From: a virus
Taxonomy: Duplodnaviria; Heunggongvirae; Uroviricota; Caudoviricetes
IMG/VR virus record: IMGVR_UViG_2565956721_000002
Direction: 5' to 3' (one strand)
Length of the DNA: 64,000 nucleotides
Positions 32,964-34,510 of the stretch are shown here, one piece after another. The notes beneath the pieces were generated by a model. It did not search any database and had not been told where the DNA came from. It saw only the letters and a program-made list of their open reading frames with translations. The stretch's first letter is position 1. Each line of letters begins with the position of its first letter. Both the position numbers and the translations under genes were made by a program.

Positions 32964-33428
32964 CAGGGTTTTCGTCATGGTTAGCGACTTTGCGGCGGTT
33001 TAGAAACTGACCATTAAAGTAAATGCAAACGATGATCTGATGATGGTAGCGGCCTAAGAAGCCAGACGCCACGGGGTATGAGTCGTCCCCCGTCAAAAAA
33101 TCGACCGCAGAGTGTCCCCGTCTGTGTATTAGGGAACGGGGAGGCACAACAGGTAAGGGCGCTGGTGTGATTAACCAGATGAACGAGAAGGGGCCATCTG
33201 TTGGTCAGCGTCCTTTCCTGTTGCGTCTTCTTTTCAGCGTAACAGCGGTGCTTAACAGCACTTTGGGTACAGTTCCACGAATTTACGGGTATATCCCGTC
33301 ATGCTGAAGGCGCTAATCACGCTGGAAGCCAGGGTTATGCATCCCCTGTTACCGAATTGCAGCCAGGGCGCGGTGCGCCGAAAAGCATACGGAGGTGGAA
33401 GCCCTCGCCGGAGACGTACCCGGCAAGT

Positions 33429-33504
33429 GATGGTGTAGCTCAGCGGTTAGAGCGGTTGACTGTTAATCAACGGGTCGATGGTTCAAATCCATCCACCATC
33501 GCCA
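33429..33504 (+). tRNA. tRNA-Asn (anticodon GTT)
   Basis: Manual cloverleaf: acceptor gatggtg/caccatc, D-loop tagctcagcggttagagc, anticodon loop ctGTTaa, T-loop ggttcaaatcc, CCA end. Confidence 0.85.
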
Positions 33505-33506
33505 AT

Positions 33507-33582
33507 GCCGGTTTAGCTCAGTTGGTAGAGCGCCTGCCTTGTAAGCAGGATGTCAGCGGTTCGAGTCCGTTAATCGGCACCA
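33507..33582 (+). tRNA. tRNA-Thr (anticodon TGT)
   Basis: Manual cloverleaf: acceptor gccggtt/aatcggc, anticodon loop ctTGTaa, T-loop ggttcgagtcc, CCA end. Confidence 0.85.
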
Positions 33583-34510
33583 GCACAACAGGTAAGGGTA
33601 TTTTGCGACGTCGGAGATCGCCGAGCTTGGCAGAGGGTTCGAATCCCTACGAAGTACCCTTACCGTTGTGATGAATGCGCAGGCTGATGCGCGAAAGACA
33701 TTGCAGCTATTGCGGAAAAGAGCTGTTCGGCGGGGCAATTAAACGCCCGTGAGAGTCTGAAATAACCGCAAGCCGGAGATCAGCACCGGTCATCACAACA
33801 CAACAGGTAAGGGCATTCTCCCTTATGGGGCTTGGCTTAAATGCATCGAGTGCTCTTACCGTTGTGATGAAGTGCAGCTCTTTGAAGCAACCAGAAGATA
33901 AGCATCTGGCTTCACAACATAAACCGCAGGAACGACCAATAAACGGTAGTCCGTATGGAGAACACCCCGTTGAGGAAGAGGCCTGGCCGGAACCGTAACC
34001 GGCACTACAACGTTGAGAACACTGGCGTAACGGGGTCATATCCCAATCTACGAATAAATGTTGCGTTGCAGCGTGACAACCAGTGTTCTCAACATTGTGG
34101 TGAATGCACAGGCTGATGTGCCGCAACTACAGTAGTGCGCGCTTTGCGGGGCTTGCTACAACCCTGTGTCGGAGTTCAGCACCGACCATCACAGTTTGAT
34201 TCTCTGGCATGAGCATAACGCTGAAATAAGTCCAGCCTGGTGCGGCCCGATCACCCGCCGTTAGCTCCACGAAACGGAGCACGTAACAGGTAAGAACATT
34301 CTCCTGTAACGGGTTCATATCCCAATCTACAGGTCCACCAAGAATGCTCTTTCCGTTGCGGTGAATGCGGCTAAGCGCACGCGGGGAAATGGTTATATCA
34401 GTCCATTCATTTCTCCTTGTTTCCCCGTCCACGGTGGATAACCAGCCAAAGGACACCGGGAGGCACCCGGCACCGCAGCTTTTTTATTCGTTAAATAATG
34501 GAGTGAGAGG

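Follow-up and report, generated by a model that had tools for sequence, protein, structure and literature searches.

What kind of element surrounds the tRNA-Asn and tRNA-Thr genes of a P1-type phage-plasmid is the question raised by a series of diverged repeat units found within a 64,000-nucleotide (nt) stretch of caudoviral DNA (IMG/VR record IMGVR_UViG_2565956721_000002; 'the window' refers below to that entire stretch). An initial annotation of the sequence described these units as tRNA-like or Y-RNA-like hairpins interleaved with the two genuine transfer RNA (tRNA) genes, and proposed that they might be structured RNAs of the lytic cycle, decayed tRNA copies or decoys for tRNA-targeting defences. 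It mentioned neither the second structured domain (M) nor the transfer-messenger RNA (tmRNA)-like tag module described below, nor the existing annotation of two genes (plp and upl) in this region, nor the spread of the repeats outside P1. The units are diverged copies of one selected structured-RNA module (termed here hairpin H), and are not canonical tRNAs. Slots occupied by H alternate with slots occupied by M, by the tag module or by tRNAs, and the same H and M building blocks are present in many unrelated enterobacterial phages, where they correspond neither to tRNAs nor to Y RNAs. In the explanation that we favour, and in which we place moderate confidence, H represents the stem-loop part of modular phage non-coding RNA cassettes, in which processing stalks alternate with small RNAs (sRNAs) of the STnc100/PasD type.

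Hairpins of the H family

The repeats described in the initial annotation are real: direct-repeat families and a 23-nt inverted repeat were recovered where it had placed the units. A repeat finder returned a family of 5' arms, a family of 3' arms and a 25-nt internal repeat common to units D and E; ACAACAGGTAAG was present three times (with at most one mismatch) versus 0.17 occurrences expected from shuffles, and CGTTGYGRTGAA four times versus 1.26 expected, with all four copies of the latter on the plus strand and at the predicted positions. Folding of each unit gives a long hairpin, in keeping with the structured nature that had been ascribed to them, for a total of five (A to E) between 33145 and 34360 on the plus strand (on which all array features located below also lie). 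A search of the 64 kilobases (kb) with a covariance model (R1), constructed from 63 homologue sequences, found only H-A (33145-33225; 39.9 bits), H-B (33584-33670; 52.8 bits), H-C (33799-33866; 57.0 bits) and H-E (34282-34360; 47.2 bits), and these four match R1 partly by construction because all of them are among its seeds. The remaining unit, H-D (34003-34102), was not detected by R1 at E<=10, and represents a diverged subtype recognized by the repeat finder and by its fold: its 23-nt arms are 91% complementary, and the GGUAAG/CUUUCC pairing of H is replaced by UUGAG/CUCAA. Hairpins like H-D are found in K751 (a Klebsiella phage) and in mEp460, and its insert contains the recurrent motif GTAACGGGGTCATATCCCAATCTAC; the insert type of D and E recurs in mEp460 and in many contigs. 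The insert of H-C is approximately 95% identical in FelixO1-like Mooglevirus phages, in which the basal stem is different. A recurrent small hairpin, GCTCCACGAAACGGAGC (34262-34278), precedes H-E.

Across the family, the stem of H spans approximately 20 base pairs (bp) and reads 5' CACAAC-A-GG-U-AAGAGCAUUG ... CAGUGCUCUU-U-CC-GUUGUG 3', with a conserved bulged A and a conserved U.U mismatch, and it encloses a hypervariable insert of 40-90 nt. The paired 5' and 3' arms of the initial description stand, but the tail appended to them ('GTGATGAATGC + CAGGCTGATGCG') really opens the domain that comes next, M. When IMG/VR was scanned for exact copies of the 16-mer CCGTTGTGRTGAATGC, at least 120 viral contigs were returned; most of the matches listed correspond to the 3' end of an H followed by M, a few lie in unrelated and apparently coding sequence, and among them are 95 distinct copies of H with a median length of 86 nt. 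The compensatory changes that had been proposed as a check on the stems were found. Over 63 distinct arm pairs, standard pairs occupy 93.5% of cells, and both sides have changed at 10 of the 19 pairs (61 cells); none of 500 shuffles equalled the observed values, and control alignments in which the arms were slid against one another left 36-63% of cells paired. U.G is the commonest state at one pair and G.U is frequent at three basal pairs, which points to an RNA of the plus strand because the complement would have A.C mismatches at those positions. In addition, R1 usually scores the tRNA strand higher than its complement (by 7-29 bits for the window units and typically by approximately 25-30 bits at other loci, with about equal scores on both strands at the two loci L065 and L088). 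Together, the G.U pairs and the strand-asymmetric scores point to RNA transcribed on the strand of the tRNAs.

T-loop-like motifs belong to the variable insert and do not define the family: such a motif occurs in 11 of the 95 distinct hairpins, within several unrelated inserts, and is lacking in the other 84. Among the T-loop-like hairpins proposed for the window, only that of unit B contains a canonical T-loop (GGGTTCGAATCCC); GGGTTCATATCCC and GGGGTCATATCCC are missing the base equivalent to A58 and represent a separate recurrent insert type, and GGGTATATCCC (33288-33298), proposed as the core hairpin of a unit, lies outside every unit. Unit B, which does begin one base past the end of tRNA-Thr (33582), is the sole truly tRNA-like unit, since its insert combines a D-arm-like hairpin (GCGA-CGTCGGAGA-TCGC) with a canonical T-arm (33636-33648). 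Its orthologues in BUCT554 and in contigs L022 and L085 retain both elements, and that of BUCT554 displays compensatory changes in the stem.

The earlier conclusion that the units are not extra tRNAs is upheld by two programs: ARAGORN finds only tRNA-Asn, tRNA-Thr and tRNA-Met(CAT), and the Rfam tRNA model (RF00005; gathering score 29 bits) matches no unit at E<=10. The likeness to Y RNAs did not survive comparable scrutiny, as the YrlA model (RF02553; gathering score 69 bits) likewise matches no unit at E<=10, a 126-nt search confined to unit B included, and its sole match (25.6 bits) covers the true tRNAs at 33449-33566. The scan of unit B alone yielded a weak resemblance to mascRNA (14.9 bits) and to tRNA-Sec (14.6 bits). 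In its architecture unit B alone may recall YrlA, joining a long closing stem, a T-arm and a D-arm-like hairpin without an anticodon arm, but it differs in that the covariance model does not match it and in that the tRNA-like insert is not conserved in the H family. No rsr gene is annotated in the P1 and RCS47 flanks that were examined (no TROVE-domain scan of the whole window was made), and to our knowledge none is known in P1.

Several further identities were considered and set aside. A hammerhead-like core (UGAUGA-hairpin-GAAA, 33667-33697) is not conserved in other copies and has no Rfam hammerhead match. A box C/D or K-turn element (GUGAUGA...CUGA) received only a 9-bit resemblance to sR7, and its CUGA is explained by the covarying loop-loop helix of domain M. 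The pair CACAAC...GTTGTG loosely resembles the R boxes of integron attC sites; two of its positions depart from the R-box consensus, the sequence of the stem is conserved (unlike that of attC), and no integrase is found in the examined flanks. A search of the literature for RNAs associated with P1 ban or its tRNAs, for phage tmRNA-like RNAs and for the conserved sequence strings found nothing relevant.

Domain M and its relationship to STnc100 and PasD

Directly 3' of nearly every H recovered in this way lies domain M, which consists of a closing stem, an AAU linker and two hairpins with mutually pairing loops (GCUGA with UCAGC), together with a hypervariable middle: GUGGUG-AAU-[GCGCA GGCUGA UGCGC]-[40-120 variable nt]-[GCCGG AGAUCAGCA CCGGC]-CACCAC. 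In 47 distinct sequences, the fraction of paired cells amounts to 91% for the closing stem (helix P1), 99% for the first hairpin (P2), 100% for the second hairpin (P3) and 96.6% for the loop-loop helix, the last of which has undergone a double compensatory change from GCUGA/UCAGC to GUCGA/UCGAC.

Four such domains follow hairpins B to E in the window. M1 (33665-33799) is closed by GTTGTGATGA/TCATCACAAC and contains a first hairpin at 33677-33692 (loop GGCTGA), a variable middle and a second hairpin at 33772-33790 (loop AGATCAGCA); its loop sequences GCTGA and TCAGC are able to pair, and the M1 segment is 96-98% identical in lambdoid phages. M2 (33861-33918) is short (GTTGTGATGAAG ... CCAGA-AGATAAGCA-TCTGG ... 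CTTCACAAC) and shares 95% identity with the sequence that separates tRNA-Asn from tRNA-Ser in a T5-like phage. M3 (34094-34195), also returned by the repeat finder and included in the pairing test, reads ATTGTGGTG-AAT-GCACA GGCTGA TGTGC ... GTCGG AGTTCAGCA CCGAC-CATCACAGT. M4 (34355-34479, followed by TTTTTT) is of the STnc100 type and reads GTTGCGGTG-AAT-...-CCGGGAGGCACCCGG-CACCGCAGC.

STnc100 is described as a prophage-encoded, Hfq-associated sRNA for which structural homology to PasD has been reported in a preprint (bioRxiv 10.64898/2026.05.13.724894); PasD was recovered by RIL-seq of Hfq, from which its Hfq binding and its pairing with target mRNAs are known, and its stability is Hfq-dependent (PMC8550237). 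M4 aligns to the core of the Rfam STnc100 model (RF02076), that is, to the closing stem GGUG...CACC, the AAU linker, the first hairpin and the CCGGGAGGCACCCGG hairpin, with 37.8 bits over model positions 31-147 relative to a gathering threshold of 47, and a homologue within a similar array in Klebsiella phage K751 scores 48.8 bits, above that threshold. The layout of STnc100 (a closing stem, AAU, a 5' hairpin, and a 3' hairpin at the closing stem) is the same in M1, M3 and M4. The genomic setting is the same as well: STnc100 and PasD are reported to lie near Q, TerB-family and lysis genes (PMC8550237; bioRxiv 10.64898/2026.05.13.724894; PMC12370729), a position in phage leaders that M shares (bioRxiv 10.64898/2026.05.13.724894). 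The two differ in that the loop-loop interaction of M1 and M3 covaries but appears not to be permitted by STnc100-type sequence, and in that the H hairpin is absent from the STnc100 model.

H and M are physically interlocked. The sequence GUUGUG (33665-33670, 33861-33866, 34094-34099 and 34355-34360) constitutes both the 3' end of an H and the 5' strand of the closing stem of the next M, and because it is common to both, the two closing helices compete and cannot both form fully. The same is seen at the other end of M1, where TCATCACAAC (33790-33799) has two possible partners: pairing with the upstream one closes M1 and pairing with the downstream one lengthens H-C, which gives a chain of mutually exclusive helices.

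A tmRNA-like tag module

Immediately upstream of H-A lies a module that resembles the mRNA-like portion of a tmRNA (32966-33141). Within it are found the motif GGGTTTTCGT, an upstream hairpin, an A-rich linker, a tag open reading frame (ORF), a pseudoknot and a hairpin at 33116-33141. The tag frame (33025-33057; GCA AAC GAT GAT CTG ATG ATG GTA GCG GCC TAA) would encode ANDDLMMVAA*; its stop codon lies in the loop of a hairpin, and an H-type pseudoknot (S1, 33072-33076/33088-33092; S2, 33082-33085/33102-33105) follows on the 3' side. A regular-expression search of the window and the fetched loci gave 32 matches, of which one is a chance match in a longer ORF and 31 are tag frames; every one of the latter spans 10 codons plus a stop, and they correspond to 11 peptides (ANDNTFLAVA, ANEEMYLAVA, ANDEQFLAVA and ANDNQYLAVA among them). 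The module is conserved in P1-, T1-, T5-, FelixO1- and Vi01-like phages, and its helices are maintained: 96.6% of cells are paired in the tag hairpin, 90.7% in pseudoknot stem 1 and 98.3% in stem 2, with both sides changed at one of four, three of five and all four pairs, respectively.

The tag of Escherichia coli tmRNA is ANDENYALAA. The phage module shares with tmRNA an A-rich linker and a GCA resume codon, a 10-codon tag (AND..[LM][AM][AV]A) with its stop in a hairpin loop (corresponding to helix 5), a subsequent covarying pseudoknot like PK2, and a match to the permuted-tmRNA consensus of Rfam (UAAaUGCaAACGAuAA). It differs in having no acceptor stem with a CCA end. Scores against the Rfam tmRNA families (including weak matches to tmRNA_permuted and beta_tmRNA) fall between 14 and 35 bits versus thresholds of 47-84; ARAGORN in its tmRNA mode found no tRNA-like domain in 134 loci or in the window; and for the conserved 5' motif AGUUUUCGU no pairing sequence on the 3' side, as an acceptor-like closure would require, was found beyond chance-level matches (11-14 of 15 positions with G.U allowed). 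In T1-like and FelixO1-like phages a promoter of the type TTGACA-17-TAGATT lies approximately 10 nt 5' of the module, too close for a tRNA-like half to fit in between. There are several contigs in which the module begins right after the 3' arm of one H and stops at the next H, and it therefore occupies the slot of an M domain or a tRNA.

These properties raise the possibility, to which we assign a low probability, that the whole array forms the body of a phage-borne tmRNA-like system whose tRNA-like domain is lacking or split off. Such a system would deliver its degron-like tag to stalled ribosomes, with the arms of H serving as acceptor stem and P2 helices and with H inserts that carry a T-arm (such as that of unit B), or the adjacent tRNAs, serving as its partner. 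Pairing is indeed possible between the 3' arm of one H and the 5' arm of its successor, and encloses the tag module exactly as P2 does. Unit B was considered separately as the tRNA-like domain of a tmRNA and was rejected: the consensus arm has no CCA end, there is no G3:U70 pair, and the T-arm is missing from the hairpins that follow the tag module in K751 and ZCKP8.

Distribution, modularity and recombination

A BLAST search of phage genomes with positions 33584-33900 returned 107 records, with matches in lambdoid phages, Klebsiella Webervirus (T1-like), Taipeivirus (Vi01-like), Mooglevirus (FelixO1-like), Sashavirus, T5-like phages and Uetakevirus; at least part of the segment is present in 1314 of 5426 complete E. 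coli genomes (1440 records). Within these phages the same elements appear in different orders and combinations, such as tRNA-Asn, H, an M2-like domain and tRNA-Ser in a T5-like phage, or the tag module, H, M, tRNA-Arg and tRNA-Met in the T1-like phage ZCKP8. The sequence that lies 5' of tRNA-Asn in the window precedes H in another contig (L116), and the relative Ro157c2YLVW has an extra tRNA-Tyr. A much longer array is found in K751 (a Taipeivirus; 1472-4809 of locus L008), in which 3.3 kb without an annotated gene run from the tag module through H, M, a full STnc100 match (3997-4211) and a D-type hairpin (4212-4288) to a final tRNA-Met.

In D6 and P7, a genuine tRNA-Ser(UGA) lies between an M and an H at a point where the window has none. 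These class II tRNA genes (2607-2693 of locus L004 for D6 and approximately 2530-2617 of L011 for P7) are clearly homologous to one in a T5-like Klebsiella phage (approximately 2570-2656 of L013), as is the M2-like spacer that flanks them, and the shared homology of tRNA and spacer suggests that tRNA cassettes move between temperate and virulent phages. Strict adjacency of H and tRNA is confined to P1-type loci, with gaps of at least 80 nt elsewhere.

The insertions and deletions (indels) that distinguish P1 relatives from one another start and stop inside the repeated arms. P1, D6 and SJ46 are without 33676-33848, P7 and Ro157c2YLVW are without 33603-33795, and in SJ46 units D and E are fused through their 25-nt internal repeat. 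Because these indels begin and end within the arms, the arms also act as recombination joints.

Genomic setting of the array

Over the 1.9 kb around the array, the window is 99.9% identical to vB_EcoM-813R1, 99.4% to RCS47 and 99.3% to a P1 isolate, and the annotation of P1 was carried onto window coordinates by the alignment offset. On the plus strand, dmt ends at 32756, and the bivalent C1 operator Oban, with promoters P1ban and P2ban, occupies 32747-32776 and was found as an inverted repeat. A dicF-like region of the P1 annotation (32871-32963) ends with an intrinsic terminator (stem 32937-32956 plus a run of T), and matched no Rfam family, DicF included, at E<=10; the terminator (32937-32963) is strong, and transcription must read through it in order to reach the tRNAs and ban. 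There follow the tag module, H-A, a spacer, tRNA-Asn (GTT; 33429-33504), tRNA-Thr (TGT; 33507-33582), and then H-B, M1, H-C, M2, H-D, M3, H-E and M4, with both tRNAs located by ARAGORN. In the P1 and RCS47 records of GenBank, the approximately 900 nt after tRNA-Thr carry the minus-strand ORFs plp and upl; 3' of that stretch lie two plus-strand ORFs (one of the SPFH/Band 7 type), followed by tRNA-Met(CAT) and ban. From this gene order, the array lies within an approximately 1.7-kb non-coding leader of the C1-repressed ban operon and would be transcribed from a C1-repressed promoter; the placement of the units in a tRNA operon under C1 control, as the initial annotation had it, is sound, with all units on the tRNA strand and downstream of Pban.

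The spacer between H-A and tRNA-Asn (33226-33428; approximately 200 nt) is structured too, and holds ACGGGTATATCCCGT (33286-33300) and GCCGGAGACGTACCCGGC (33407-33424). Beyond the array, 34511-35555 encodes a membrane-like ORF of 78 amino acids and an SPFH/Band 7 protein (Pfam E=1e-30), as in RCS47, where P1 has tciA, tciB and tciC. The gene at 35583-35658 is tRNA-Met(CAT) according to ARAGORN; the P1 record calls its homologue tRNA-Ile2, which is ileX-like and read via lysidine. Elsewhere in the window, Rfam matches above threshold correspond to isrK (12137-12215), the C4 antisense RNA (12260-12347) and the sok antitoxin RNA (16179-16353), of which the C4 match is consistent with the known immunity region of P1.

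Alternative explanations

Two alternatives begin from the tRNA-like features of the array. If the units were tRNA-like or Y-RNA-like RNAs, they might serve as partners of an Rsr/Ro protein or as decoys for tRNA-targeting defence nucleases; the T-arm and D-arm-like hairpin held in the long stem of unit B and kept in its three orthologues, the recurrence of T-loop-like motifs in unrelated inserts, and the weak mascRNA and tRNA-Sec scores are all in keeping with that idea. We nonetheless judge it quite improbable, since most of the hairpins have no T-loop, the orthologues in K751 and T5-like phages have no T-arm, and the YrlA model, the tRNA model and ARAGORN are all negative on the units; moreover, the units possess neither an anticodon arm nor a free CCA end, which weakens the decoy idea in particular. 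It is a little less improbable, although still unlikely, that they are decayed tRNA genes (pseudo-tRNAs) left by turnover of the tRNA cluster and devoid of a function of their own. H does fill slots that hold tRNAs in relatives, T-arms are seen in several independent inserts, and relatives do possess extra tRNAs (Tyr in Ro157c2YLVW, Ser in D6 and P7). Against such decay stand a stem that is clearly selected and displays compensatory changes, consensus arms conserved across phage families that share little else, and inserts that are mostly unlike tRNA, those of the C type and the D/E type being conserved between distant phages.

Other alternatives concern the level at which the sequence acts. 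The repeats might be DNA-level elements (recombination linkers, inverted repeats resembling miniature transposable elements, or attC-like sites) in which RNA folding is incidental: the indel junctions of P1, P7, D6, SJ46 and Ro157c2YLVW all lie inside the arms, the arms look like terminal inverted repeats (CACAAC...GTTGTG), and their sequence conservation exceeds the need of pairing alone. This too appears doubtful, given the frequency of G.U pairs (the commonest state at one position), the preference of R1 for one strand and the location of H on the same strand as the adjoining M, the loop-loop covariation of M, which is hard to explain by a function of duplex DNA, and the absence of a transposase or integron integrase from the annotated flanks that were examined. 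A comparably small probability attaches to the proposal that the units are cis-acting regulators of the operon that they lead, either as put-like antiterminators or as switches built upon the H and M closing stems. In many lambdoid contigs H starts 8-15 nt past an intrinsic terminator downstream of Q, in mEp460 an H-M pair, with a terminator after it, lies in a leader beside the repressor gene, the P1 array is situated between the terminator of the dicF-like region and ban, and GUUGUG is common to two alternative helices. The T1-like module set, however, is served by a promoter of its own and finishes with tRNAs, and no long operon follows on which an antiterminator could act, the modules of T5-like and FelixO1-like phages are spacers within tRNA clusters, and several tandem copies per leader would not be expected of an antiterminator. 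Finally, the stretch might encode Plp and Upl on its minus strand, the repeats being coding repeats, as the annotation of both genes in the P1 and RCS47 records and the presence of minus-strand ORFs of 139 and 109 amino acids in the window would have it. That reading is very improbable: the ORFs on both strands of this stretch are without a Pfam match; indels have altered where they end and how long they are from one relative to another (P1 and the window, for instance, differ by 173 nt, a number not divisible by three); among the matches listed (the 1440 E. coli records) tRNA-Thr is the sole gene in the RefSeq annotation; and all covariation is of the RNA-helix type on the plus strand. Both plp and upl, as annotated on the minus strand in GenBank, are probably spurious.

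A proposed modular cassette of processing stalks and small RNAs

The explanation that we favour is one in which, upon derepression of C1, the array would be transcribed from Pban as a single precursor, and the stems of H would act as double-stranded processing stalks, probably for ribonuclease III (RNase III). Cleavage would then free the tRNAs, the M-type sRNAs and the H inserts as discrete and stable RNAs, such that the variable inserts would constitute functional cargo and the M domains would act in the manner of STnc100 and PasD; the shared arms double as recombination joints through which cassettes are gained, lost and exchanged between phages. The comparisons above establish the structures and the selection on them, their RNA polarity, modular order and distribution, and the recombination joints; the single precursor, its processing at H and the sRNA activity of M are inferred. 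The leader-trailer stalks of ribosomal RNA operons and the stalks of phage T7 early mRNAs are processed by RNase III, and H would be analogous to them in possessing stems of approximately 20 bp that flank a cargo RNA, in their conserved internal mismatches or bulges, and in their repetition along a polycistronic precursor. The analogy is imperfect, in that the sequence conservation at the base of H is far above what RNase III needs.

Several observations weigh against this explanation. RNase III has little sequence specificity, and the conservation of the basal 13 bp of H across unrelated phages is therefore unexplained by it; a sequence-specific protein, or homogenization by recombination, may lie behind that conservation. 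The GUUGUG shared by H and M could mean a switch rather than simple processing, and, as simple processing explains neither the conserved base nor the competing pairing, a conformational switch or a protein that binds H specifically may be involved. The relationship to STnc100 is also incomplete: the score of M4 lies below the gathering threshold, and M1, M2 and M3 have no STnc100 match at E<=10. Only 39 of the 134 loci have a tRNA within the stored flank, and many H-M copies occur without one. Lastly, because the H and M alignments were gathered with a fixed 16-mer, the 3' strand of H and the 5' strand of M are necessarily invariant at the basal pairs.

Implications

Acceptance of these structures would lead to re-annotation of approximately 1.7 kb of P1, which ranks among the most thoroughly studied phages, and in which the hypothetical minus-strand proteins Plp and Upl would give way to a plus-strand array of structured RNAs. 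The two scaffolds, each with a hypervariable insert, form a system common to temperate and virulent enterobacterial phages and to approximately a quarter of complete E. coli genomes, of which only the STnc100 variant is represented in Rfam and to which PasD appears related. The occurrence of a tag module without a tRNA-like domain raises the testable question of whether phages interfere with ribosome rescue; if a tmRNA-like system were indeed present, it would let P1-, T1-, T5-, FelixO1- and Vi01-like phages reprogramme or bypass that process in their hosts during infection. If the inserts are cargo, then the cassettes would give phages a general means of expressing small RNAs alongside tRNAs and of exchanging them.

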